From a phage: a DNA stretch of 64,000 bases. Positions 1,087-54,811 of the stretch are shown here, piece by piece. The notes under the pieces were generated by a model. It did no database searches. It was not told the DNA's origin and worked only from the letters and a program-made list of their open reading frames with translations. The stretch is taken from NCBI GenBank assembly GCA_032691205.1, contig GCA_032691205.1_4541.1. The stretch is one strand, 5' to 3'. Numbering within the stretch: the stretch's first letter is position 1; every line of letters begins with the position of its first letter. Made by a program: the position numbers and the translations under genes.

Positions 1087-1416
1087 ATGGAAATTACTAC
1101 AGAACAAGCCCTTATCGACGAGGGTCGTAAAATCTTAGAAAAGTATTTAGAGGAGATTCATAAAACCCCTGGCTATTTGGGTTGGAGAATTGTTGAAGCT
1201 GTAGATTTCCTTCCTCGTAACAGTAAAAGCGTCGAAATGCGATCTCTTTTCTTATTAGTAAAGGTGGATGGGGATACACCTTTTAAAGATGCCGCAGAAC
1301 ATATTGAAAAAGTTGAAGAGAAAGCTTATGCAGAATTTGCCGATCTTGTTTTAGAACAAGAGATTGAAGGAAAGGTGAATATTTTTATTTTCTTAGATTT
1401 TGAGGAGGATAAGTGA
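1087..1416 (+). CDS. hypothetical protein (109 aa)
   Basis: ORF track; RBS GAGGAGG upstream. Confidence 0.6.
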   Translation: MEITTEQALIDEGRKILEKYLEEIHKTPGYLGWRIVEAVDFLPRNSKSVEMRSLFLLVKVDGDTPFKDAAEHIEKVEEKAYAEFADLVLEQEIEGKVNIFIFLDFEEDK

Positions 1417-2156
1417 TCATACACAGAGAAATTACTGTTAAAAGCGATCAAGATCTTTTTATAATTGGAGATCTACACGGTTGTTATAATTTGTATGAAA
1501 AAGGAAAGGCAAAGTTAGGTATCCGAGATACAGATGTGGTTGTATCTCTAGGAGATCTTACTGACCGTGGAAAGCAAAACTTTCGTTGTGTTTTAGAATT
1601 TACTCGTAAACACAATCGCTACGCTATTCGTGGCAATCATGAAGACATGATGATTAAAGGTATGCTGGAAGGAGATCGTAGCTACTACGAGTGTTGGTAT
1701 CAAAATGGAGGATATACGGTCTTTGAAGAATGTGGTGAAGAAGGAGCTACAGCCTTAGCAATGATGACAGAAGATTTACCTGTTGTTCTCATTGTTAACT
1801 ACAGAGGCATGAAACTTGCGTTTATTCATGGTGGGTATCCATCTTCTTTGGAATATCTCCCTGTAACAGATATTCCAGAATACATTTCGAAGATGACAAA
1901 AACACAGGAAAACCGTTTTGCTGAAGCACTTATGTGGGACAGAGATATGGTAGACTGTGCTAAAGAGGGAATGAAACTTCCTGTTGTGATGGGTGTGGAT
2001 TATGTGTTTCATGGACACTCTTATGTAAAAACACCTATTATCAATGCGAATCGTGTTTATATGGATACTGGATCTGTGTTCAATAATAACTTAACATTTG
2101 CTTATTTCGATATGGACGGTGGTCTTCAATTTTATTCAACTCTTGAGGAGGATTAA
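1413..2156 (+). CDS. PPP-family metallophosphatase (Ser/Thr phosphatase or ApaH-like)
   Basis: Motifs GDLHG, GDLTDRG, GNHE in canonical order in the translation. Confidence 0.8.
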   Translation: MIIHREITVKSDQDLFIIGDLHGCYNLYEKGKAKLGIRDTDVVVSLGDLTDRGKQNFRCVLEFTRKHNRYAIRGNHEDMMIKGMLEGDRSYYECWYQNGGYTVFEECGEEGATALAMMTEDLPVVLIVNYRGMKLAFIHGGYPSSLEYLPVTDIPEYISKMTKTQENRFAEALMWDRDMVDCAKEGMKLPVVMGVDYVFHGHSYVKTPIINANRVYMDTGSVFNNNLTFAYFDMDGGLQFYSTLEED

Positions 2157-2464
2157 TGTATAAGATTACAATTATTCAAAGTGTAGGTAATATCCGTAAA
2201 GAAGTTATCTTAGAAACAGAAGATGTTAATCTTGTTCGTAAGATTGTTCTTAAGGAAGATAACCTGCAAGCTGTAGAATCAGATGCACCGAATCTTATGG
2301 TGGATCAAGAATATTCTGAACTTCGTCGTATTTTTGAAGAGATTCAGAAGAAAGAAACACAACCGACCATAAAACCTTTTGGTCCTTATGATCCGAGCAA
2401 TCCTAGCAGTCCTTGGATCATGAGAAATACGGAACCGTATACACCTTTTGAAATTACTTGTTGA
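2156..2464 (+). CDS. hypothetical protein (102 aa)
   Basis: ORF track; start overlaps upstream stop. Confidence 0.55.
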   Translation: MYKITIIQSVGNIRKEVILETEDVNLVRKIVLKEDNLQAVESDAPNLMVDQEYSELRRIFEEIQKKETQPTIKPFGPYDPSNPSSPWIMRNTEPYTPFEITC

Positions 2465-2471
2465 GGTGATT

Positions 2472-3053
2472 ATGGCAGAACTGTTCTATACGGGAGTTGG
2501 AAGTAGAGACATATCCGAAGAAGAGTGGGCTTTGATGGTAGGCATAGGGAAATGGCTTTCAAACCTTGGGTTTAAATTAAGGTCTGGGAAGGCAGAGGGT
2601 AGTGATTCTGCTTTTGAAACAGGTGTCCAAGAGTCTGAAAATCCTACTAACAAGGAGATTTATGTTCCTTGGGAAAATTTCAAAGGTAATCAGATTCCAG
2701 GGGATGTTATTGTTCTTGCAAAACCAGATACAATGAACTATGCTATCTCTGTGCAATGGATCAAAGATGTTCACCCAGCCTATGAAAAGCTTAAGCAGGG
2801 TGCTAGAAAATTGCACCAACGTAATGTGCATCAAGTGTTAGGTAGAGATTTGGAGAATCCTGCTCCATCATGTTTCTTGTTGGCTTGTGCTAATACTGAT
2901 AAACATGGAGATGCAAAAGGTGGAACAGCTACGGCTTGGAAGATAGCTAAAGCCAATAATGTTCCTTGTTTAAACATTCGTGGGAAAACAAAACAAGAGA
3001 TTTACGATTTTCTACGACCTTTGGTAATGAGGGCAATAACAAGTGATTCCTAA
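2472..3053 (+). CDS. SLOG/DprA-like Rossmann-fold protein (putative)
   Basis: Start moved to ATG 2472 (RBS GAGGTGA); motif GVGSR ... SGKAEGSD resembles DprA/LOG-type nucleotide-binding loop. Confidence 0.5.
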   Translation: MAELFYTGVGSRDISEEEWALMVGIGKWLSNLGFKLRSGKAEGSDSAFETGVQESENPTNKEIYVPWENFKGNQIPGDVIVLAKPDTMNYAISVQWIKDVHPAYEKLKQGARKLHQRNVHQVLGRDLENPAPSCFLLACANTDKHGDAKGGTATAWKIAKANNVPCLNIRGKTKQEIYDFLRPLVMRAITSDS

Positions 3054-3555
3054 ACGTAAACGTGGTGAACAAAGAACAAACTTGGCAGAAATCTTAGATT
3101 ACAACATGGTTAATGATGTGACAAAAGAAATTCTGCCTGTTGTAGAAAATATTCTTCAAAGAGGGTTACGATTCTGCTCGGATCGGGTGCATTTCATGTG
3201 GACACATAAAAGTGACTCCGCTTTGAATTTCTATCCTTTGGACTATACTCTGAACAATACGGAGATGAAAGATATCAACAAATACTTAATGGGATATAAA
3301 GATATAACAGAAACTGTTCTTGGAGAATTGGCAGAGATCTTGGCTAATGATATCCTTAGAAATATTAATAAGGCTCTTGACAGAAGTCCAGCAGGAGTAG
3401 TAGTATCTTTTGCTGTGCCAGATATGGTTAAATATGAGTCTACAATACCTAATAAAGCTTATGCCTTTCTTCGGAGAGACGTTCGTGGAAATGTGTTGGA
3501 GATGGAGTCAAACTACAAGATTGAGGAGGTTTTATGGCAGAGTTCGGATCAGTAA
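3043..3555 (+). CDS. hypothetical protein (170 aa)
   Basis: ORF track; GTG start. Confidence 0.5.
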   Translation: MIPKRKRGEQRTNLAEILDYNMVNDVTKEILPVVENILQRGLRFCSDRVHFMWTHKSDSALNFYPLDYTLNNTEMKDINKYLMGYKDITETVLGELAEILANDILRNINKALDRSPAGVVVSFAVPDMVKYESTIPNKAYAFLRRDVRGNVLEMESNYKIEEVLWQSSDQ

Positions 3556-24758: not shown

Positions 24759-25212
24759 TGCTCTCTCCTCCTAACTCATCATACCATTTCAAAGCGTCTT
24801 TTGGAAGCATACCAAAATCTTCTTTTAGTTCTTTTTCAATCTCTTCTTGCATTTCCATCAGCGTTTTCAGTTGACGGACTTTTTTGTGCATAGCCACATT
24901 CCTTTCATTAAGGTTTGTCACTACATTATTTGTACGACTCGGTGGAAATGACAAAGGTTTCACGGGAAGATAATCTTCGATATTATCTAGTGCGTTACGA
25001 AAATTATGATCCAAGAAACGCACATCTACACGATTGTAATCAGCAGCTACAACAGTGAACACTTTAAACGGCACATTGGATAAAGTATGTTGCACACAGA
25101 CAGTACCCATATTACCTTCAATTTTACTGGTAACTTCCAGCAAACCTGTATGAGCACTAACATAATCGTGAACACATTGCACATAAGCTGCCAGTATAGT
25201 GAATTGTCTCAT
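24751..25212 (-). CDS. hypothetical protein (153 aa)
   Basis: ORF track. Confidence 0.55.
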   Translation of the reverse strand: MRQFTILAAYVQCVHDYVSAHTGLLEVTSKIEGNMGTVCVQHTLSNVPFKVFTVVAADYNRVDVRFLDHNFRNALDNIEDYLPVKPLSFPPSRTNNVVTNLNERNVAMHKKVRQLKTLMEMQEEIEKELKEDFGMLPKDALKWYDELGGESNV

Positions 25213-25457
25213 TTTCTACCTCCCCATAATGCTAACATTTTATTGAAAATGGAAACGCGTCGTGCGCGAGATGCCATATCATAATTCATTCTTTCCGTCT
25301 CTGCAAGAAATTGATCTACTGTAATCAACGCTTCTGTCTTCTCTTTCAGAGTTTGCATATTCATCCATTCACATTCAGAGTACCAATTATCGAAATACAA
25401 ACTATCGAGAAGATCCATTGCTGCTTCATTCTGTTGTGGTGTGATCATTGCACACAA
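25209..25457 (-). CDS. hypothetical protein (82 aa)
   Basis: ORF track. Confidence 0.5.
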   Translation of the reverse strand: MCAMITPQQNEAAMDLLDSLYFDNWYSECEWMNMQTLKEKTEALITVDQFLAETERMNYDMASRARRVSIFNKMLALWGGRK

Positions 25458-25460
25458 CCT

Positions 25461-25691
25461 TTAATAGACAATTTCATATTCGTGAGGAAAGAAAACATAA
25501 TCTTCCCCTTCTCGTGCATCTATCTCGTCCCAAAACCATTCCTGCACTTCCATCATCTTCGAGAATCGCACATGAGCAAGCCCACTGTATTCCACAGTAG
25601 CTTCCAACACAAGTGGAAATTTTGCATGTGCCAATCCTTTATAACCACCATCATTCTCAATACGAATTTTCATGCGTTTCATGTTATGCAT
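25461..25691 (-). CDS. paralog family B member
   Basis: ORF track; EWFWDE..DYVFF. Confidence 0.5.
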   Translation of the reverse strand: MHNMKRMKIRIENDGGYKGLAHAKFPLVLEATVEYSGLAHVRFSKMMEVQEWFWDEIDAREGEDYVFFPHEYEIVY

Positions 25692-25893
25692 CCTTCAGAC
25701 CCTTAATAAAGTAACGACCAACCGGATTCCCTCGGAAGTATTCGTTAATGAAATCGATAACACACGTTTCACTGCCTGTCACAACGGACGGCTTAAAGTT
25801 TTGGAATTCTACAACTACACGGCTGGCTTTAGCCAGTGCTTGCACACGTGTAGGATCAGTCAAGAACATTGTGACAGTTTTCAAATTCTTCAT
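25684..25893 (-). CDS. hypothetical protein (69 aa)
   Basis: ORF track. Confidence 0.5.
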   Translation of the reverse strand: MKNLKTVTMFLTDPTRVQALAKASRVVVEFQNFKPSVVTGSETCVIDFINEYFRGNPVGRYFIKGLKDA

Positions 25894-25942
25894 TTCATCT
25901 CCTCATTGGCTATCTGTTATGTCATCCATTATACAAACATCT

Positions 25943-26311
25943 TTATTCAATGCAAGCATTATTTGCATCTTCAATCCGATCTTTCACCCACTGAAGACGT
26001 AACGTGTTGGTATGACACGCCAAGTTTATACACTCTGAAAGGTAATCCATGCAATCCACATTGAACGGAAGATTGTAGTCCAGCCCTGCACATGTAAATT
26101 GTTTCCTCATTTCATATTTCAAACGGTCCAACAAATGATCACGCCATTTTCTATCTTCTTCTCTAGGTGTATCACCAACAAAATCATCTACATAATCTAC
26201 CAGACAACCACATAAGCCACTCGTTGTGCGATTCATTGCAGGATAGTTGGCAATCCATGCTTTATAGAAGCGAAGCAATGTTGCACTGCTCAACGGAATA
26301 CTATTTGTCAT
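25943..26311 (-). CDS. paralog family A member
   Basis: Track ORF trimmed to ATG 26311 after AAGGAGAG; GLC, PFN, WVKDR. Confidence 0.6.
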   Translation of the reverse strand: MTNSIPLSSATLLRFYKAWIANYPAMNRTTSGLCGCLVDYVDDFVGDTPREEDRKWRDHLLDRLKYEMRKQFTCAGLDYNLPFNVDCMDYLSECINLACHTNTLRLQWVKDRIEDANNACIE

Positions 26312-26645
26312 CTTTCTCTCCTTCATAATCTTGAATTCTATCTAGCACCCATTGTATACGATGTTTGTTTTTATGGCAAATATGTTTTTTATGTTCAAAG
26401 GTGTATTCCTCATAACCACCTTCATTAAACGGGAAATTGTAATCCAATCCTGCACCAATAAACTGTGATTTCATCTCCTGTTGTAGACGAGGTAACAGTT
26501 CATCAGGATATGTTCCCTCTACATACTTAATCAAACATATGCACAAGCCACTCGTTGTGTGACCTTCTACCTCACCAGCAAGCCAAGCTTTGTAAAACTT
26601 CATTAGACGTAAACTACTTAACGGAACATTTTTACTCTCTTGCAT
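26301..26645 (-). CDS. paralog family A member
   Basis: ORF track; FYKAW, GLC, PFN, WVLDR. Confidence 0.6.
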   Translation of the reverse strand: MQESKNVPLSSLRLMKFYKAWLAGEVEGHTTSGLCICLIKYVEGTYPDELLPRLQQEMKSQFIGAGLDYNFPFNEGGYEEYTFEHKKHICHKNKHRIQWVLDRIQDYEGEKDDK

Positions 26646-26985
26646 GACAATCTCCTCTCATCGTTAGCCATCTTTCATGGCAATCATCAATCACCAACAT
26701 CATACGATCAATCTTAAGGAATTACAATCGAATTATCATAGGGGATTCCTATCAATTATCCCATATATACCGATTATTTTTGACACCCCCACTCTTGTAT
26801 AAAAAGTAACCCAAAATATCTACGGGGAGAGATTATTTCGACACACCCTGTTTCATGGCAATCATGGCAAGAATATCTAATAGAATCAATATGATATGGC
26901 AAAAATCATGGCGCATACGTAAGAAGTGCTTAACGCGAATTTTCGGGCCGTCAGGTCCACGCAGCGACAATTCCCAAATATCATG

Positions 26986-27008
26986 CGAATGAGAATAATT
27001 ATCATTCG
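26986..27008. promoter_or_regulatory. Fur-box-like palindrome (candidate operator)
   Basis: cgaatgagaataattatcattcg, near-palindromic. Confidence 0.3.
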
Positions 27009-27338
27009 TATTCAATGACTTATGCAAGGCTCATGCCAACATAGCGACAAGGTGGGCCACCTGATTATAAATCACACAAACACTTATTTATCAATGGCTT
27101 GGCAACTTCATCATATGACGGAACAATGTCAACTGATCCCGCTCATGACAAGCAGACTATTATTTATATGAGAATGATTATTATTTAAACGTTTATTAAC
27201 ATAAAAACTAAAATAAATCAAGATTATTCTGATTTTATTTACGTTTAAGAGAAGGTGCTCAACATATCGCGTAGCGATAGTATTCGCCCCCAAAATTATT
27301 GACTTTTATTCTATTATGTGCATAGTGTGCAATGTATC

Positions 27339-27357
27339 GGAATGATGATAATCATCC
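27339..27357. promoter_or_regulatory. Fur-box-like palindrome (candidate operator)
   Basis: ggaatgatgataatcatcc. Confidence 0.3.
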
Positions 27358-27400
27358 TCCCATTGCCCCCATAATTATTGCCATGCTAATTGTTTCCTTA

Positions 27401-27423
27401 CATAATCATTACAATGATTATTG
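27401..27423. promoter_or_regulatory. inverted repeat ATAATCATT/AATGATTAT
   Basis: cataatcattacaatgattattg. Confidence 0.3.
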
Positions 27424-27901
27424 TTATTGCGCTAATGTTATGATCTTGGTAATTACATATAATGCTAATAATAAGCCAGCGCAATAAGTGTAAGCGTCAT
27501 TACGCTTGCAATTATTGCAAGCTACGCAGTAACAAGAAATAACCGTCACCGATGGTTATGATTGTTGGGGTGTAGTTGGCTTATTATTAGCTCGCTATGT
27601 GTCCGGCATAGCGTGCTAATGATGACTCTGTGAATGATTCGTTTTGTAATGATTTCATTCAGGCACTATTTTGCTAATAGTTATTATTTTAATGGTTTCG
27701 TTTGTTATTGTTCGTTAGTTGGTTGTTTTGTCGTGTTATCGTTATCTTGCTTAGTATTCATCATGGTTCGATTGTTTGTCGTTATCAATCATCTTGCTAT
27801 TATTCCTTTGATTATGATTAGTTTGCTTATTGTTTTATGTTGTTTGTTGGTTAGTTGTTGCGAACTATTATCAACATTATAATTATGCGCTTATATTGCA
27901 T

Positions 27902-27937
27902 AGATAATCATGGGTAGATGATAATGGTTATCATTGC
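27902..27937. promoter_or_regulatory. tandem Fur-box-like sites
   Basis: agataatcatgggtagatgataatggttatcattgc. Confidence 0.3.
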
Positions 27938-28142
27938 ACTAGAAAGGAGGTAAAAGGGTGTTTTTGATGGTTTGTTGTTGGTTGTTGATCGATTTTAACC
28001 GCTCTAAATGGCTCTCTAACAGCCTGTAACCCTGGGAGGTATGGTTATTCGTTTGCTGGTTGATTAGCTCGATACCGCAATTTATTCAGTTTTGTTCTGT
28101 GTCGGTTTTCCATAGGCGGAATCTATCAACATTGTTCGGGGC

Positions 28143-28169
28143 AAAAAGAAAGGGCGCTCGGTGCGCCCC
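28143..28169 (-). terminator. rho-independent terminator (minus strand)
   Basis: gggcgctcggtgcgccc hairpin; U-rich tract on minus strand. Confidence 0.6.
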
Positions 28170-28184
28170 TTGTTTTGTTGTCGA

Positions 28185-28604
28185 TTATAACGCTTCATAG
28201 ATTGAGTAGATCCGGTTTGCCAGGTCATTACGAAAGCGGAATTTTTCATCACGTTTAATCATCAGATCCTTAAAACCGTATTCTTTCAATGCTTCATTAA
28301 CTTTATGGCGGCAAACGTTCATATTATCCTGCGCGTCACCAATAAACTTATTACTGTGATGCATTGCTTTGATCTCTTCCTCTAATACCAGGGCAACTAC
28401 ACGGATCGGATCAAGCTGATATGCGGTAACATCCATGCGGCATTGTAAACGGCTTTTAACATCGTTTACCGGATACACTGCAACCTCTTCCCCGTCAACG
28501 TTCACGATAACCAATTTACCATCAATTTCGAAGCCTTTGGCGGCGCTACCGTGACAAAAAGCGTTATCGAAGGAGTAAGCTGGATTATTTGATTTAATGT
28601 TCAT
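28185..28604 (-). CDS. hypothetical protein (139 aa)
   Basis: ORF track; RBS AAGGA. Confidence 0.6.
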   Translation of the reverse strand: MNIKSNNPAYSFDNAFCHGSAAKGFEIDGKLVIVNVDGEEVAVYPVNDVKSRLQCRMDVTAYQLDPIRVVALVLEEEIKAMHHSNKFIGDAQDNMNVCRHKVNEALKEYGFKDLMIKRDEKFRFRNDLANRIYSIYEAL

Positions 28605-28639
28605 GGTGTTGTCCTTTGTTTCGTTTCGTTGTTTGCTGC

Positions 28640-28672
28640 CAGTGAGTTAAATATAATATAACGCCGATCCCC
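28640..28672 (-). promoter_or_regulatory. promoter with -35 inside a hairpin (TTGACA ... TATTAT)
   Basis: Minus-strand read cccctaTTGACAgggg...TATTAT upstream of 28185-28604. Confidence 0.45.
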
Positions 28673-28715
28673 TGTCAATAGGGGATAGCGCATTATTTAC
28701 ATTTCTTTACGTTAA

Positions 28716-28732
28716 AGGGCGCTTAGTGCGCC
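28716..28732 (-). terminator. GC hairpin downstream of 28746 gene (possible terminator)
   Basis: gggcgcttagtgcgccc. Confidence 0.4.
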
Positions 28733-28745
28733 CCCTTGTATAATC

Positions 28746-29114
28746 TTACTTTGTGCGGTTGTGAACGTTATCGCGTTCAACCATCAGGGCAAGGCGGATC
28801 AGTTGATCAGTTGTATCGCGTAAATTGTCGGGCCATGTTTTACTGTTCCAGCTATCCAGGTTTGATTGTATATAGGTTTCAATGGCTTGATCCATACTAT
28901 CAAACAAGTTTTCCTCCAAGCTCTCGGCTGTTTCACACTGGAAAGCATTAGCGACACTGTTAATCAATAAGCAAGCCAGTAAATCAGCATTACGCCAATT
29001 TTTACGGATAGTTTCATCTGTCAGATAACAAACGAGATTAACCTTTGCGCCAGTGGTTGACGTTGCGATCACTTCTTGTGCTTTTTCAAGTGCTTTAATT
29101 GCTGATTTGCTCAT
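28746..29114 (-). CDS. hypothetical protein (122 aa)
   Basis: Track ORF trimmed to ATG 29114 (RBS AGAGGA) so that it begins downstream of the promoter cassette. Confidence 0.55.
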   Translation of the reverse strand: MSKSAIKALEKAQEVIATSTTGAKVNLVCYLTDETIRKNWRNADLLACLLINSVANAFQCETAESLEENLFDSMDQAIETYIQSNLDSWNSKTWPDNLRDTTDQLIRLALMVERDNVHNRTK

Positions 29115-29131
29115 TTTATTTTCCTCTTTGT

Positions 29132-29192
29132 GGGCTTGCTGTATTGCTCGCCCTACGTGATAAATAATAATGTAAGCGTGATCCGGTGTCAA
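29132..29192 (-). promoter_or_regulatory. PeSL-like cassette (degenerate hairpin + TTGACA promoter)
   Basis: -35 tgtcaa at 29187-29192 (plus-strand spelling); gccctacgtg box. Confidence 0.45.
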
Positions 29193-29321
29193 TAGGTAGG
29201 ATTGTAAAGATTTGATAGTTTATCTCTTTGATGTTTTGTTGTTTGATAGGTATTAGCTATCGATATATAGCGGGATCTTCCGGTGATTATCTTCCCCTGC
29301 TCCCAGGTGCCGCCCGTTCAA

Positions 29322-29355
29322 TAAGTATAACAAAAAACAGGACAAAAACAAGCCC
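29322..29355 (-). terminator. rho-independent terminator (minus strand)
   Basis: aacaggg...ccctgtt hairpin; T-rich after it on minus strand. Confidence 0.45.
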
Positions 29356-29367
29356 TGTTTATTTATC

Positions 29368-29502
29368 TTAAAACCAGGTGCCAACCGTTTCCAATAGGTC
29401 GCTGACTACTAGGACAACATTGATCAGCACATGTTCAACCATGAAGGGGATAAGCGCCAGCGTTGCTACTACGATCCCCATTGTGATGATTACCTTTCTC
29501 AT
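29368..29502 (-). CDS. small membrane peptide (44 aa), not in ORF track
   Basis: Own translation MRKVIITMGIVVATLALIPF...; ATGA overlap with upstream gene. Confidence 0.4.
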   Translation of the reverse strand: MRKVIITMGIVVATLALIPFMVEHVLINVVLVVSDLLETVGTWF

Positions 29503-29789
29503 TGTTGGCGGTTTACGTAAGCTTTACCGTTTACGGTCATCGGTATGGCCTCAAGGTCTGGATCTCCCTTAAGGTCGCGTGCAAGCTCACCGCAGCGGGT
29601 ACCCTCGAATCCGTAGTACTCTGTTGTGCCGTCCTGGAAAGTTTTAGCGGCAAGGCATAGGCGATAATTAACGCCGATCCGGTTTATTGCGTTGATATCG
29701 GTTAGCGCGATGGATTCTGGCAACTCATTAGCCAGTACAGGCGCGTTAATACCAACAACCAGGGCAACTACTGCGATCATCTTTTTCAT
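29499..29789 (-). CDS. small secreted protein with signal peptide (96 aa)
   Basis: N-terminus MKKMIAVVALVVGINAPVLA. Confidence 0.55.
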   Translation of the reverse strand: MKKMIAVVALVVGINAPVLANELPESIALTDINAINRIGVNYRLCLAAKTFQDGTTEYYGFEGTRCGELARDLKGDPDLEAIPMTVNGKAYVNRQQ

Positions 29790-29843
29790 GCGTCTATCCT
29801 CTTCCTATTGCGTTTAATGGGGTGTTACCGCCCCGCTTATGGT

Positions 29844-30080
29844 TTATTGATTGATGTTATGATGAAAGTTATTTTCTTCAATAGCTTTTAAAATAAAAGC
29901 CGTGATCGCTTTCGTGTCTACTTGTTCGAACGTATCAGAATAAGCCCAATAATAATCATCCCCTACTTTCGGCGGGTAAACCTGGACAAGGAGATCGCCA
30001 CCTGGTTGATCTATAAGCTCAACATGCAAGCCGGATGATTCAGCGGTTTTAACGGCGTTTAATACTGTTGCAATACTCAT
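29844..30080 (-). CDS. hypothetical protein (78 aa)
   Basis: ORF track; GC hairpin in 5' leader. Confidence 0.55.
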   Translation of the reverse strand: MSIATVLNAVKTAESSGLHVELIDQPGGDLLVQVYPPKVGDDYYWAYSDTFEQVDTKAITAFILKAIEENNFHHNINQ

Positions 30081-38738: not shown

Positions 38739-38847
38739 CCACTTTTTCAATCTTTTTTATTTTCTTTTTGCTTGCTATATATAAAGGAAAGGGTTATCAT
38801 CTTTCTACCGCGCCAACCAGGGCGCACAACAAAGAAAGGGCGACACC

Positions 38848-39114
38848 ATGACAAATACTACATTACATCTTATGCACTCATTGGGCTGGCAAGGCGGCAC
38901 GGTGCACCAGGTAGCAAGCGCAACGGGCTTAAAGGTTGAAACCGTTCTCAACCTATCAGATTATAAGGTCGAGGATAGTTATCAATTACAAAGTTACACG
39001 GGCGGTTTTACCTGGGCGCGTGAAGGTGGGAAAGAAAGCAATATACCACATTGGGGAAAAGGTGATATTCATTTTTGGCTAGGTGTCCTGACCTGGCAAG
39101 AAAACAAAAAATAA
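38848..39114 (+). CDS. hypothetical protein (88 aa)
   Basis: ORF track; RBS AAGGG; isolated plus-strand ORF between minus blocks. Confidence 0.4.
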   Translation: MTNTTLHLMHSLGWQGGTVHQVASATGLKVETVLNLSDYKVEDSYQLQSYTGGFTWAREGGKESNIPHWGKGDIHFWLGVLTWQENKK

Positions 39115-39116
39115 TC

Positions 39117-39145
39117 TTGACAAGCCCAGGGATAGGGCTTATACT
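39117..39145 (+). promoter_or_regulatory. consensus sigma70 promoter TTGACA N17 TATACT
   Basis: Exact -35 hexamer; 17-nt spacer; -10 TATACT. Confidence 0.6.
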
Positions 39146-39151
39146 GTTTTA

Positions 39152-39370
39152 CATACAGAAGAGGAAGCGCCACCCCACGGCGTAAAGGCGGGGCTAACAT
39201 ACCAGGGGCACTGGTTGGAAGGTTGATCGCCGGTAGGCTGGGCGCTATATATTTGTAAAGAAATGTAAAGATAAAATAATCGCTTGCTTTCCTGGCTGGA
39301 TCTGTTATTCTTATTACATGGCGAGGGGACACGGGAGCGCGAGACAAACACCGCCCCTGCGCGTCATTCT
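39152..39370 (+). ncRNA. candidate structured small RNA (GC-rich island downstream of promoter)
   Basis: GC-rich self-complementary segments (gcgccacc..ggcgc; gaggggac..cgcccctgcgcg) with no convincing ORF. Confidence 0.3.
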
Positions 39371-39394
39371 CTAAATGAGAATGATTATCATTTA
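39365..39394. promoter_or_regulatory. palindrome CATTCTC-taaa-TGAGAATG plus Fur-box-like AATGATTATCATT
   Basis: 16 of 19 positions match the Fur-box consensus as I recall it. Confidence 0.3.
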
Positions 39395-39434
39395 CCTTAT
39401 CAAATAAGAATAAATCTCATTTATAAACTTAAAT

Positions 39435-39478
39435 GCGAATCATTATCATTTGCATTTCCATATGAGAACTCTTCTCAT
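39435..39478. promoter_or_regulatory. Fur-box-like site and ATGAGAA-ctc-TTCTCAT palindrome
   Basis: gcgaatcattatcatttgc ... atgagaactcttctcat. Confidence 0.3.
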
Positions 39479-39501
39479 TCTCACCTGCATAAAAATTTTT
39501 G

Positions 39502-39544
39502 TAAACTTTAAATTTTGCTTTTGTACTTTCATTTTTGTAAAAGC
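39502..39544. repeat. direct repeat copy 1 (about 43 bp)
   Basis: taaactttaaattttgcttttgtactttcatttttgtaaaagc. Confidence 0.55.
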
Positions 39545-39639
39545 AAAAAAACTTTAAATACTGTGGGCGCGCAAAATTTTTAAAATTTTCCTTGACTTTT
39601 GAGTTTTGTTTTGTATCTAACATTTTAAGATAATTTTCC

Positions 39640-39679
39640 TAAACTTTAAATTTTGGTTTTCAACTTTCACTTTTGTAAA
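39640..39679. repeat. direct repeat copy 2
   Basis: taaactttaaattttggttttcaactttcacttttgtaaa. Confidence 0.55.
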
Positions 39680-39921
39680 TTCTTAAAAAGTTTAAATAAT
39701 TTGAGGGATTTTTGAGATAATGGATAGTGGGAATTTGATATAACCTTTAATCTTATTAGTAGACCTTCAGGAACCCACCTAGATCGAATCCTAGTGATGC
39801 AAACTGAAAAAGATAAGTGTTTGTATAGGACAAAATAACAGGCTCTCTACGGTGCTGTAGGAGCCTTATTTCTGTGCTACAAAGTGACACCTTTGTTCTA
39901 AAAATGAAAAAAGTTAAAATA

Positions 39922-40464
39922 TCACAAATATCGTCTTTGCGGTATTTTGTCTGGGAAAAGTATTTCGATCAGTTTATTATGATATTTGCCTAAAAGATTC
40001 TGCCCTTTCCAGGTGGCAGGGTTTAGCACCCCTGGTTCATACATCCCCATTCCAATTCCGTAAACCTTATCGTAGGGGCTTGCTTCAACAAACGTTTTGT
40101 ATTGGTAAAGGTGTAAGTCTGCATACAAATCTGGATTCTGTACATATTTCAAGCATAAACCTCGCATAACAATACGCTCACGGTTCTCTTCCCATACATT
40201 GTTATCAAAATCCGACACTGCCCTACCCATACGTTTGTAATAAGCTTGGATCTTCTCATCTTTCCGTATCAAACTATGAGTCAGAATAGCCTGTGCAGTG
40301 TTGTGGTCATTAAAAAGCAAAGCTTTACGCCACATCATATATTGTTCGACACAATTAAATGTCTGATTGTAACCTGGTTCGGTTTCTGTAAAGGGTGCAA
40401 TATACCAATTACTAAAAACATCTTTATGTGAAAAGAAGAATACATAATCATCAGTTATTCGCAT
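39922..40464 (-). CDS. NADAR/YbiA-like (DUF1768) domain protein
   Basis: FFFSHKDVFSNWY, EQYMMWRKALLF, KRMGRAVSDFDNNVWE and EASPYDKVYGIG match the NADAR pattern as I recall it. Confidence 0.65.
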   Translation of the reverse strand: MRITDDYVFFFSHKDVFSNWYIAPFTETEPGYNQTFNCVEQYMMWRKALLFNDHNTAQAILTHSLIRKDEKIQAYYKRMGRAVSDFDNNVWEENRERIVMRGLCLKYVQNPDLYADLHLYQYKTFVEASPYDKVYGIGMGMYEPGVLNPATWKGQNLLGKYHNKLIEILFPDKIPQRRYL

Positions 40465-52180: not shown

Positions 52181-54811
52181 GTGTCTACACAATTGAGTTT
52201 TACACCTACTGATGAACAATACGCTATTGAAAGCGGGTATAAAGAAAATCGTTTCGTTACAATTCAAGCTAAATCTGGATCAGGTAAAACGTCAACACTG
52301 TATATGTTGGCTAATGGCACAAATGATAGTATTCTATATTTGGCATTTAACAAAAGTATGGCAGAGGAAGCTCGACGTAAAATGCCGCCCAATGTTATGT
52401 GCCGAACGCTACATTCAATCTGTTACCAACGTCTTCCACAAAACCTTCGACACAAATTGTCTCGTCCAGAAGGTCAATATGTTAACGTAGCTGGAACTGG
52501 TAGTGAGATTGCCAAAAAATTCAAGATTCAGAATTTGATTGATAAGAATGGTAAAGTGCTACTGACTCGTGCAATGATCGGGTTAATGGTAAAACAAACT
52601 TTAGCTAAATATGAGTTTTCTGACGATGAACATATTGGACATAAACATTTTCCTAAAGTGCATATGTCAGATCTTAAACGTAAGAACATCAACGAACAAA
52701 AACTTATTAACGAAGTTGTTAAATATGCGAAGCAACTTTGGCGTGAGCGTATTGATCCTAAATCAGAAACCATTATGACTCATGACACCTATGTGAAACT
52801 CTTTGAATTGAGTAAAGAAGATTTAGGATACGATATTATTTTTGGAGATGAATTCCAGGATGTTAACCCTGCATTCCTGTCTATCCTTCGCAATGCTAAA
52901 TCGGCTAAACGTATTGTTGTTGTGGGTGATGAGTTTCAGTGTGTGTCTGAGAACACTTTGCTTAACACTGAACAAGGGAAAGTTTTAATGAAAGATCTTC
53001 AGGTCGGGGATAAAGTAGAGTCTTACTTAAACGGTAAAGTGGTGTTTAAAACAGTCACAAACAAAACTTTATCTACTCGAACAGAAGGCAGAAACATTAT
53101 TACATCCAAAGGGAATACGTTAGACATGACTCACAATCATCGCATATGGGCTTCTTCTTACACTTTAAAAGAAGACCAAATGATTGTTTACCTTATGTGG
53201 AGAAAAGATTTAGGCTTTCGTGTAGGAATTACTAACAAATTCGATGATAAAGAAGGTTTTTCTAAACTGGGGCAACGTACACGTTCTGAAAAAGCACAGA
53301 AATTGTGGGTGTTGGATATTGTTGAAAACCGTGAAGCTGCTATGGAAAAAGAAATGGCATACAGTTTACAATATGGCATTCCTACTTGTGTATTTGAAGC
53401 AAGTTCACGCAGTATTAATCAAGAAAGGGTCAATAACATTTTTGAACAATTCGGACAAAACGGTTTTAAACTTTTAGAGGATAAAGATTATCATTTTGAC
53501 TATCCTCATTGGCACAGTATTAACTCTTCAACAGAGAATCGCAAAATGCTTACTGTCTCACTGCGTGCTCAAGGTAAGAAAGGGACTGAGGTGCACTTTG
53601 AATGGACAGAAGAAGAGATGCAGATTTTCGATACTTTGGTAGAGGCAGGTGTTAAGATAAGTAATGCTAAAAATGCAGGTCGTTTCCGTGTTCGTAAGTA
53701 TTTTGCATCTTATAGTGAAGCTTTAACTTTCGCAGAAGAAATTTTAACTATTATTCCTTTCGCCTCTTTGAAAGAGTCTATGGCATCTGTAGATGGTGTA
53801 AAGTATAACTTAATACCTGCCGCAGGATTGTTTAAAGGAATGTCTGTGCTTGTTAAAAACGGGGATACTGTTGTTGCTGAAGAGATTGTAGAGATTGAAG
53901 ATACTCAAGGTTTCTACTATGATGTAGAGATTGAAGATACTGCAAACTTCTTTGGGAATAACATTTTAAGTCATAATTGTATCTACCAGTTCCGAGGTAG
54001 TTCTAATATGATGGTTGAGACTGCCACATATGGGGTTGAGTTGCCTCTGACAGCTTGTTTTCGCTTTGGTCCTAAAGTTGCGGACATTGCTAATGCGATC
54101 CTTTCTGATCGCTCACCTCTGAAGCATCCGCTGGTAGGGAAAGGTTATGATACTGTCACTGGAAGTTTTCATTCTGATGTGGTAGATTATAGTAAACCTT
54201 ACACCATTATTTTCCGTAAGAATTTGACCCTGTTGCTCGAAGCTATGGATCGAATCGCTAACGGAGAAGAGATTATTATTAACGTAGATACCAAAGATTT
54301 CATTTCTATGGTTGATAGTGTTAATGCTTTACGTAGAGGTGATTTGGACAAAGTTAAGCATGAGACAGTTCTACCTTACACTTCTTGGGAAGAATTTGTA
54401 GAGTGTGCAGAATCAGATCCTGATGCAAAACGACTTTTAAACATCGTTGTTTCTGGTAAAGCTAATAATATTGCATACACTTTACGTATGCACCGTAACT
54501 CTCCAACGGCTAAAGTTACTTTAACTACAGCCCACAAATCAAAAGGTTTGGAATGGGATCAGGTTATTGTTGCAAATGACTTCCCTTCTAATTATGATAA
54601 GAAGGGTGAGTGGGTAGGTCTTGAAGAATCAGAACGAAATCTTCTGTATGTTGCACATACACGTTGTATTAAATGTCTGCAATGGAACCGAACTGTTCAA
54701 GAGATTTTAGACATGCATCGTTTAGGTAAGAGCACGGCTCCTGTATCTGAAGAAGATAAGCTTATAGCTGCCCTTGCTCGTAAGATTAATCAAATCAGAG
54801 AGGATCGTTAA
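52181..54811 (+). CDS. UvrD/Rep-like SF1 helicase interrupted by an intein
   Basis: Walker A SGSGKTST; VVGDEFQ then intein then CIYQFRGSS (motif III); TAHKSKGLEWD; YVAHTRC. Confidence 0.8.
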   Translation: MSTQLSFTPTDEQYAIESGYKENRFVTIQAKSGSGKTSTLYMLANGTNDSILYLAFNKSMAEEARRKMPPNVMCRTLHSICYQRLPQNLRHKLSRPEGQYVNVAGTGSEIAKKFKIQNLIDKNGKVLLTRAMIGLMVKQTLAKYEFSDDEHIGHKHFPKVHMSDLKRKNINEQKLINEVVKYAKQLWRERIDPKSETIMTHDTYVKLFELSKEDLGYDIIFGDEFQDVNPAFLSILRNAKSAKRIVVVGDEFQCVSENTLLNTEQGKVLMKDLQVGDKVESYLNGKVVFKTVTNKTLSTRTEGRNIITSKGNTLDMTHNHRIWASSYTLKEDQMIVYLMWRKDLGFRVGITNKFDDKEGFSKLGQRTRSEKAQKLWVLDIVENREAAMEKEMAYSLQYGIPTCVFEASSRSINQERVNNIFEQFGQNGFKLLEDKDYHFDYPHWHSINSSTENRKMLTVSLRAQGKKGTEVHFEWTEEEMQIFDTLVEAGVKISNAKNAGRFRVRKYFASYSEALTFAEEILTIIPFASLKESMASVDGVKYNLIPAAGLFKGMSVLVKNGDTVVAEEIVEIEDTQGFYYDVEIEDTANFFGNNILSHNCIYQFRGSSNMMVETATYGVELPLTACFRFGPKVADIANAILSDRSPLKHPLVGKGYDTVTGSFHSDVVDYSKPYTIIFRKNLTLLLEAMDRIANGEEIIINVDTKDFISMVDSVNALRRGDLDKVKHETVLPYTSWEEFVECAESDPDAKRLLNIVVSGKANNIAYTLRMHRNSPTAKVTLTTAHKSKGLEWDQVIVANDFPSNYDKKGEWVGLEESERNLLYVAHTRCIKCLQWNRTVQEILDMHRLGKSTAPVSEEDKLIAALARKINQIREDR
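52940..53977 (+). other. intein (346 aa) within helicase motif III, possibly with a homing-endonuclease domain
   Basis: Starts Cys (CVSENTLL), internal TLDMTHNH block, ends ...NNILSHN followed by Cys. Confidence 0.7.

Follow-up and report, generated by a model that had tools for sequence, protein, structure and literature searches.

A gene-free genome-end region of a Phapecoctavirus with putative operators of the host Fur type and a conserved structured element

The gene-free island and the ends of the genome

We examined a 64,000-nucleotide stretch of phage DNA (contig GCA_032691205.1_4541.1 of GenBank assembly GCA_032691205.1; referred to from here on as the window) around a gene-free island at positions 26646–28184, which appears to join the two ends of a linear genome and to carry palindromes of the type bound by the host iron regulator Fur, together with a conserved structured element. 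The phage is a phAPEC8-like Escherichia myophage of ~150 kb belonging to the genus Phapecoctavirus of the subfamily Stephanstirmvirinae, and across the island and its flanks it is 93–98% identical to phAPEC8-like Escherichia myophages. Minus-strand genes flank the island on both sides. The left neighbor (26645→26301), a homologue of phAPEC8_0018, opens a series of small genes, and the right neighbor (28604→28185), a homologue of phAPEC8_0017, is the last gene of the preceding operon and is followed by a strong intrinsic terminator (AAGGGGCGCACCGAGCGCCCTTT then CTTTTT; 28171–28149, minus strand). The plus-strand A-run of this terminator is invariant in all lineages, and its plus-strand T-run is found only in Phapecoctavirus. 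We note that several database entries from this group name Campylobacter, Pseudomonas or Acinetobacter as the host, although at this locus they are 89–98% identical to coliphages; such host labels call for caution.

Within the island, positions 26931–27259 correspond to one collapsed copy of a direct terminal repeat, the boundaries of which represent, by homology to relatives, the ends of the virion DNA. In the Schickermooser record the first 329 bp are identical to the last 329 bp, in WPEC1 an exact 328-bp prefix recurs as the suffix, and both map to 26931/26932–27259 of the window; the phi92 record (FR775895.2) carries an annotated 343-bp “right end direct terminal repeat” with exactly homologous boundaries (TAACGCG... 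at one side and ...AGGCT, then CAAC, at the other). Further, three terminal repeats, each determined independently, agree in having homologous boundaries, and the database records of many relatives start or stop inside the gap at identical points. Because the repeats and the record ends of the relatives map here, we conclude with high confidence that the island represents the junction of the two ends of a linear genome, with a repeat of 329 bp. The terminal repeat and the gene-free gap were already known for this phage family: the repeat of Schickermooser has been given as 328 bp (Korf et al. 2019), and two further papers describe Stephanstirmvirinae genomes as ending in direct terminal repeats, with 342 bp by PhageTerm for BME3. 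The phi92, Schickermooser and BME3 repeats have homologous sequence, the same boundaries (T|TAACGCG... and ...GGTGCT|CAAC) and the same placement, between the last right-end gene and the small early genes that come first. Nothing beyond the repeat and its length is recorded there, whereas here operators and a structured element are added. The papers on the terminal repeats of this group, when searched as text, make no mention of operators, of a structured element or of a function of the surrounding 1.2 kb. A likewise large region free of open reading frames (ORFs) is drawn as a “non-coding” box on the genome map of rV5, from a related myophage group, where it is reported as lacking ORFs and no features are described (Kropinski et al. 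2013, PMC3606486).

Both repeat boundaries are conserved across genera, with GTGCTYAAC at 26926–26934 and at 27255–27263, and it is at these boundaries that the packaging enzyme would generate the virion ends. The sequence GTGCTYAAC as a unique cut signal was rejected, as it occurs three more times in the window and thus cannot be the entire signal. At its left end the virion DNA would begin with the repeat, followed by a 285-bp promoter-bearing leader and then the first early gene; at its right end the last operon would stop at the conserved terminator, beyond which ~890 bp of non-coding DNA lead up to the repeat. The first two genes past the left genome end (26301–26645 and 25943–26326, both on the minus strand) are paralogues belonging to phrog_2510 (E ~1e-25 each), the function of which is unknown. 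In T7 and T3 the concatemer junction consists of a short terminal repeat in non-coding DNA, with the early promoters A1–A3 to the left and packaging signals to the right. The present junction resembles theirs in having a short exact repeat within more than 1 kb of gene-free DNA, promoters of host type close to the left end and, on the right, a non-coding arm with inverted repeats; it differs in that there is no sequence similarity, that the phage is a 150-kb myovirus which, to our knowledge, uses the host RNA polymerase, and that putative operators of a host-regulator type lie in and beside the repeat. The mapped repeat would give the correct genome ends for annotating this window. A preliminary description made from the sequence alone, which had proposed an iron-responsive or regulator-titrating region, a Rho-dependent boundary or a replication origin, was in part right, but it missed both the genome-end identity of the region (the repeat at 26931–27259) and the structured element at 27464–27623.

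The same description had found no credible ORF in 26646–28184, and we agree. The longest ORFs within the island encode 82 amino acids (plus strand, 27634–27882) and 64 amino acids (minus strand); the largest have no match in Pfam or PHROGs, whereas every flanking gene has one. The curated records of phAPEC8, Schickermooser, phiWec190 and phi92 leave the island empty, the terminator being the sole annotation inside the gap in the phAPEC8 record, and the gap is kept in relatives at a length of 1.58 kb in phiWec190, 1.77 kb in the Justusliebigvirus ESCO32 and 1.9 kb in the Vequintavirinae phage Av-05. That the island conceals decayed or frameshifted protein genes can be given very little credence. 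Automatic annotation of some relatives does place 6–9 small ORFs in the gap, and the 82-amino acid ORF lies in a T-rich tract, but the calls differ between records, no ORF is conserved, and the sister lineages have indels and unrelated sequence at the same places. A Shine-Dalgarno sequence (AGGAGG) followed by a hydrophobic ORF of 23 codons, with GTG at 27958 (27945–28029, plus strand), is probably not a gene: a TAG interrupts it in phiWec190, and both the Shine-Dalgarno sequence and the ORF are missing in Justusliebigvirus and the Klebsiella phages. An ORF of 46 amino acids that overlies the conserved block at 28064–28148 is not conserved either. Searches for tRNA and tmRNA genes found none. 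A candidate tRNA at 27770–27790, where ATGGTTCGATTG includes the T-loop-like GGTTCGATT, was dropped; because phAPEC8 and phiWec190 have GGTTTGATT instead and no tRNA is found by ARAGORN, the resemblance is probably due to chance. The only tandem repeats in the island are trivial short arrays.

Fur-type palindromes and the promoter-like sites they overlap

The palindromes of the island were scored with a Fur matrix made from the best site of each of 11 E. coli K-12 Fur-controlled promoter regions (fepA-fes, fepD-entS, fepB-entC, fhuA, ryhB, tonB, exbB, cirA, fecI, fecA and fur), which converged on the textbook consensus GATAATGATAATCATTATC; the scan covered the 64-kb window and about 20 loci. 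At least six Fur-box-like palindromes had been claimed for the island and a matrix scan proposed as a check. The scan places them far above background: there are 8 sites of at least 12 bits, in 7 clusters, where 0.45 are expected, and 4 sites of at least 16 bits, where 0.026 are expected, and neither count was reached in any of 1000 dinucleotide shuffles (P < 0.001). Sites number 5.2 per kb in the island compared with 0.30 per kb elsewhere in the window, and none of 2000 column-permuted palindromic matrices gave four or more strong matches (P < 0.001). The shuffles and the permuted matrices together indicate that the signal is specific to the Fur pattern and does not reflect generic AT-richness. 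The training operators score 10.1–18.3 bits when each is left out in turn, and the phage sites score 16.1–21.5 bits. Pairs of overlapping sites 6 bp apart, at 26985/26991, 27914/27920, 39371/39377 and 39429/39435, form 25-bp arrays. Genuine Fur clusters are composed of overlapping sites in F-F-x-R-R hexamer arrays with 3- or 6-bp phasing (Chen et al. 2007, PMC2189734).

Two of the putative operators are located in the terminal repeat. Operator 1 (26985–27009), a 25-bp palindrome (GCGAATGAGAATAATTATCATTCGT) made of two 19-mers offset by 6 bp that score 17.1 bits (26985) and 17.3 bits (26991), lies ~55 bp inside the left repeat boundary. Its position is kept in Phapecoctavirus, the phiWec190 type, Justusliebigvirus and two of the three Klebsiella phages, with scores of 22.6 bits in phiWec190, 20.6 in ESCO32, 15.1 in Klebsiella phage phi1_175008 and 14.6 in FKP3. 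Operator 2 (TATGAGAATGATTATTATTTAAACG; 27167–27191, with a 17.7-bit site at 27170) lies ~90 bp inside the right boundary and has counterparts of 17.3 bits in phiWec190 and 22.9 bits in ESCO32, the latter (TGATAATGATTATCA) with a perfect 7-1-7 core. Halfway between these two operators (27089–27101, plus strand) is a sequence resembling the consensus for IHF, TATCAATGGCTTG. The 16 nucleotides around it are identical in the phi92 repeat and conserved in the cross-genus alignment; the consensus is short, and an IHF site here is weakly suggested. In the right arm, operator 4 (27914–27938, plus strand) comprises sites of 11.9 bits (27914) and 16.1 bits (27920), and a weak box upstream (27859–27877, plus strand) matches the 7-1-7 core at 11 of 14 positions. 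The two boxes of this right-arm pair are spaced 58 bp in ESCO32, alia and the Klebsiella phages, and the downstream box is present, at 19.3 bits, even in Av-05, which belongs to another subfamily. Only the clusters at 26985–27009, 27167–27191 and 27914–27938 are conserved in other lineages, in flanks that are ~70% identical; the matches at 27341 (12.9 bits) and 27410 (14.2 bits) are specific to the lineage and lie in a variable spacer (27260–27457) that is poorly conserved even between the window and phAPEC8. No Fur homologue is encoded by phages in Stephanstirmvirinae, and our search of the literature for Fur boxes in lytic phages or transcriptomes of this subfamily found nothing relevant.

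Palindromes of the same type occur elsewhere in the window. A second gene-free gap of ~1.2 kb (38750–39921) has two 25-bp Fur-type palindromes 58 bp apart, at 39371–39395 (21.5 bits) and 39429–39453 (16.1 bits), followed by four AACTTTAAAT-type repeats. This gap also has a small plus-strand ORF (38848–39114), GC-rich hairpins and a near-consensus plus-strand promoter (TTGACA-17-TATACT, 39118–39146), and scanning it against Rfam returned nothing meaningful. The gene that borders it at 39922–40464 (minus strand) encodes a NADAR-domain protein (Pfam PF08719, E 8e-36), and an ORF at its border at 39069–39347 (minus strand) has no family match and may not be a gene. Further, a Fur-type match of 18.5 bits (GATAAAGATTATCATTTTG, 53480–53498) is located within an 876-amino acid ORF (52181–54811) and may be due to chance or represent an internal operator.

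The pattern [TC]TGCAT-N17-18-GAnA[AT]T has only two copies in 64 kb, both with the putative −10 hexamer inside a Fur-type box. On the minus strand, a promoter-like TTGCAT-18-GATAAT (27027→26998), the −10 of which is inside operator 1, points to the early genes; on the plus strand, TTGCAT (27896–27901) lies between the right-arm boxes and GATAAT (27920–27925) at the start of operator 4, again 18 bp apart. The plus-strand arrangement, as [TC]TGCAT-18-GAnAnT, is kept in eight phages, among them phAPEC8, phiWec190, ESCO32, three Klebsiella phages and Av-05. It can reasonably be inferred that the promoter-like sites at boxes 1 and 4 would be promoters repressible by Fur. A shared small RNA resembling RyhB, running from the right-arm promoter to the terminator, was dropped as an idea because there is no covariation and the plus-strand T-run is missing outside Phapecoctavirus. 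The leader between the terminal repeat and the first gene (26646–26930, read on the minus strand) contains three σ70-like promoter candidates found by a promoter scan, TTGCCA-18-AATAAT at 26861–26832 (10 of 12 consensus positions) and two others at 26801–26773 and 26727–26699, all on the minus strand. It also contains a repeated core, GTGTCRAAAATAATC (minus strand), and the motifs CCTATCAATTATYCCATATATACC and TTTTTGACACCCC, which the alignment shows to be conserved across genera. A direct repeat, TTTCATGGCAATCAT, had been described in the leader; it is indeed present as two exact 15-bp copies, at 26673–26687 and 26851–26865 (the second starting one base before the 26852 that had been given), and in the alignment it is not conserved beyond close relatives.

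The structured element and the rest of the right arm

A 160-nucleotide element at 27464–27623 (plus strand), conserved in all Stephanstirmvirinae lineages sampled, is predicted to form six helices: a 15-bp closing helix P1 (27464–78/27577–91), P2 (27480–86/27498–504), P3 (27505–11/27515–21), P4 (27539–46/27552–59), P5 (27522–27/27570–75) and P6 (27593–99/27607–13). In 14 sequences from four lineages, 98.6% of the cells of these helices are paired, compared with 23–57% in slid controls, and 13 pairs are changed on both sides; the observed values were reached in none of 500 shuffles. P1 occurs in four compensated versions (AAGCCA/TGGCTT, AACGCA/TGCGTT, ACCGCA/TGCGGT and AACACA/TGTGTT), the hairpins P4 and P6 also vary in a compensated manner, and RNAalifold recovers four of the six helices (P1, P4, P5 and P6). 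The non-Watson-Crick pairs in P3–P5 are all G.T on the plus strand, which folds as RNA at −76.4 kcal/mol (z −9.1), compared with −55.2 kcal/mol (z −5.8) for the minus strand. A third copy of GCTAATGAT (GCTAATRAT), at 27615–23, can replace the 5′ arm of P1 by pairing with its 3′ arm. A TATAAT hexamer directly upstream (27458–27463, plus strand) is a possible −10 with no good −35; it reads TACAAT in the phiWec190 type and is weaker in other lineages. A covariance-model search found the element in single copy in the window and gave a match in Av-05 that is not significant (E = 0.18); Rfam had no match at E ≤ 1 in 25000–30000 and none at gathering score in the whole window. When IMG/VR was scanned with a pattern of the hairpin core, three of the seven loci retrieved were true relatives, and the other four, chance matches in unrelated coding sequence, were discarded. 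In the gap of Av-05 (1222–3138, 1.9 kb), two direct copies and one inverted copy of GACACAATAACGC are arranged around ~50 nucleotides in a layout that is analogous to that of the GCTAATAAT copies of the structured element but unrelated in sequence, and the plus strand there also has a CA-rich stretch.

We consider the element to be a functional part separate from the operators and most likely a structured RNA; hairpins formed in single-stranded DNA for replication or packaging are the alternative. Structured nucleic acids are known near the ends or origins of replicons, such as the packaging RNA of phi29, ColE1 RNA II and single-strand initiation signals. The element resembles these in its multi-helix fold, its length (~170 nucleotides), its location near a genome end, its strand specificity and its alternative pairings, and differs in having no similarity, in sequence or in model, to any Rfam family. 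It is a clear candidate for a novel nucleic-acid structure of phages, whether of RNA or of DNA.

Adjoining the element is a T/G-rich, C-poor tract (27598–27900, plus strand) that is rich in TTGTT and TTAT words. Its segment 27640–27900 had been described as consisting almost exclusively of G and T; it stands out in G+T more than any other part of the window (0.78 per 100 nucleotides, z 4.3; 0.71 per 260 nucleotides, z 4.7), but the wording overstates a composition of 51% T, 18% G, 19% A and 11.5% C (30 residues), that is, 69% G+T, and calling the tract C-free would likewise be wrong. The sequence is near-identical in phAPEC8 and phiWec190, and the same position is C-poor with a different sequence in Justusliebigvirus (at most 5% C over 345–450 nucleotides) and in the Klebsiella phages (205 nucleotides). 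That the plus strand stays C-poor in sister lineages despite unrelated sequence shows that there is some compositional constraint, and we regard the tract as a conserved C-poor spacer. No 10–11 bp periodicity of AA/TT, as a sign of intrinsic curvature, was detected.

Whether the right arm has a different purpose was weighed on the same evidence. The tract could be a Rho utilization site that stops minus-strand transcripts escaping the terminator and so shields the genome end as well as, in concatemers, the early genes. The placement just downstream of the terminator at a block boundary, the kept C-poor plus strand and a minus-strand RNA with little G (11.5%) and more C than G agree with this, as does a C-minus-G excess that reaches 0.29 per 80 nucleotides against a 99th percentile of 0.21 for the window. 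We nevertheless find a Rho-dependent boundary poorly supported and quite improbable. The predicted minus-strand transcript is not the C-rich, G-poor RNA that had been supposed but an A-rich one (51% A, 18% C, 11.5% G) with 10 YC dinucleotides in 261 nucleotides, and does not show the composition of a Rho site (at least 80 nucleotides of unstructured, C-rich and G-poor RNA with frequent YC). Further, the C-minus-G peak, at 27910, is over a Fur-type operator rather than the tract and is not the maximum of the window, the corresponding strand of Justusliebigvirus would be about 17% C, and a strong conserved intrinsic terminator already stands upstream. A replication origin or priming site, in which GCTAAT iterons, or hairpins loading a primosome or primase on the single-stranded plus strand, or a transcript from the TATAAT at 27458 that primes synthesis through the T/G-rich tract, would start replication, is somewhat better placed, although still unlikely. 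Six copies of GCTAAT/ATTAGC occur within 290 bp (27385–27678), those at 27385 and 27431 in the variable spacer, and a seventh is at 28063, out of 44 in 64 kb; the hairpins are strand-specific, the adjoining tract is AT-rich and strand-skewed, and the Av-05 gap has the analogous copies of a different 13-mer. The copies are, however, irregularly spaced, and three of the six are helix arms of the structured element. DnaA boxes (TTWTNCACA) are absent from the island (7 in the window compared with 10.4 expected), and there is neither helical periodicity nor a GC-skew switch centered here beyond the local tract. The support for the origin proposal of the preliminary description is indirect, and nothing links GCTAAT to a phage replication protein. 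The structured element is not detectable in Av-05 by the covariance model, and it is RNA that more typically shows compensated helices with pairs of the G.U type.

To the right of operator 4, a block at 28064–28148 (GCTCGATACCGCRATTTATTCA...ATAGG...CTATCA) is conserved in sequence from the Klebsiella phages to Av-05, where its counterpart is at 3001–3109 of the locus and where the right-hand 330 bp, including the operator and this block, are shared. No covariation was found in the block beyond the terminator. Part of it, ACCGCRATTTATTCA, is similar to the sequence at the left cut site of the repeat (AACGCGAATTTT), and in the Klebsiella phages the heptamer AACGCGA is present both in the block and at the left cut site. 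A Chi-like GCTGGTTG at 28054 was set aside because, given its orientation, RecBCD coming in from the nearby end would meet it on the wrong strand.

Possible roles of the Fur-type operators

Taken as a whole, we estimate a probability of about 0.6 that the island is a genome-end control region of Phapecoctavirus with operators of the host Fur type and a structured element. Considered separately, binding of the palindromes by host Fur-Fe2+ is quite probable; that their role is the iron-dependent repression of promoters at the genome end is a more tentative proposal, to which we would give somewhat less than even odds, and titration of Fur by the pool of replicating genomes is a further possibility. 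Dimers of host Fur-Fe2+ would occupy the 25-bp F-F-x-R-R arrays, and the right-arm operator and, in this lineage, the repeat operator would cover the −10 of the TTGCAT-18-GATAAT promoter. The covering of the −10 hexamers suggests that transcription from the genome ends would be repressed under iron abundance and released under iron shortage. The many copies of a replicating genome would also soak up Fur. E. coli reportedly contains about 5000 molecules of Fur per cell, and Fur boxes supplied in multiple copies derepress the Fur regulon in the Fur titration assay (FURTA). The recurrence of the 58-bp-spaced pair at 39371–39453 argues for a role of the boxes in transcription-factor binding rather than in packaging only. 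On the sequence side, the scores, the 6-bp phasing and the positions kept across genera strongly support the host-regulator titration or iron-control idea of the preliminary description.

The main rival is that the palindromes are read not by Fur but by a phage protein, such as the small terminase subunit or an early repressor, perhaps in a packaging complex resembling lambda cosB with an IHF-like site, their resemblance to the Fur consensus being coincidental or convergent. A protein of a different fold could read the same palindrome, the two repeat boxes flank the conserved IHF-like site at a spacing of ~85–97 bp, and box positions relative to the cut sites are conserved. The phage consensus also prefers GAGAAT over GATAAT at one half-site, but GAGAAT also occurs in genuine E. 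coli operators, that of fecI for example, and the site frequencies correlate with the E. coli Fur matrix at r = 0.97, a value that is partly circular. A packaging-only role is at odds with the same boxes outside the repeat, 0.7 kb away at 27914–27938 and 12 kb away at 39371–39453, with their conserved 58-bp pairing, and the Klebsiella phages, which have no site of at least 13 bits at the position of operator 2, can evidently dispense with it. On balance, we consider a phage protein an unlikely reader. The absence of operator 2 from the Klebsiella phages tells against control by Fur as well, as do several other points. The minus-strand promoter-like copy is found in the window and phAPEC8 only; the TTGCAT −35 matches three of six consensus positions, a consensus scan listed neither site, and the better consensus promoters of the leader overlap no Fur box; and downstream of the plus-strand site there is no conserved ORF, fold or plus-strand terminator. 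Further, it is not obvious why a virulent phage would accept repression in iron-replete cells.

That phages put host regulators to their own use is well known, the Fur box of the stx1 promoter and LexA boxes being examples. The stx1 promoter of Shiga-toxin prophages is said to be regulated by Fur, and the likeness is that transcription from phage DNA would respond to iron through a Fur box carried on that DNA; there, however, the box serves a cargo toxin gene of a temperate phage, whereas the putative boxes of the present, virulent phage are found at its genome ends and in its regulatory gaps, with conservation across genera. The likeness to E. coli operators such as those of ryhB, fecI, fepD-entS and fhuA extends to the same 19-bp consensus, equal or higher scores, overlapping sites offset by 6 bp and a GATAAT that may double as a −10 hexamer. 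The candidate operators of the window differ from these in being on the genome of a virulent phage, also within its terminal repeat, and in having no iron-related gene downstream.

The Fur-type arrays (two of them in the repeat), the covarying element and the conserved block at 28064–28148 appear to be undescribed so far. Isolates of this phage group are obtained widely for use in therapy and biocontrol, and the ~1.2 kb around the repeat is blank in the curated records that we examined. A more far-reaching version, that Fur has been recruited as both sensor and target, with high-affinity arrays in the repeat and at two further control regions that render transcription from the genome ends responsive to iron, titrate Fur as the genome multiplies to hundreds of copies and induce host iron uptake to the phage's advantage, and that the ~160-nucleotide element is a new class of structured RNA, is doubtful but deserves mention; if true, the RNA would be specific to the subfamily and would act in end-proximal regulation, replication or packaging, and the arrays would be a natural counterpart of the laboratory Fur-titration assay. 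If Fur does bind the arrays, a virulent phage would have its infection tied to iron status. Because the iron available in the gut, in urine or in inflamed tissue is sharply different from that in laboratory broth, such a coupling would bear on the efficacy of these phages in vivo.

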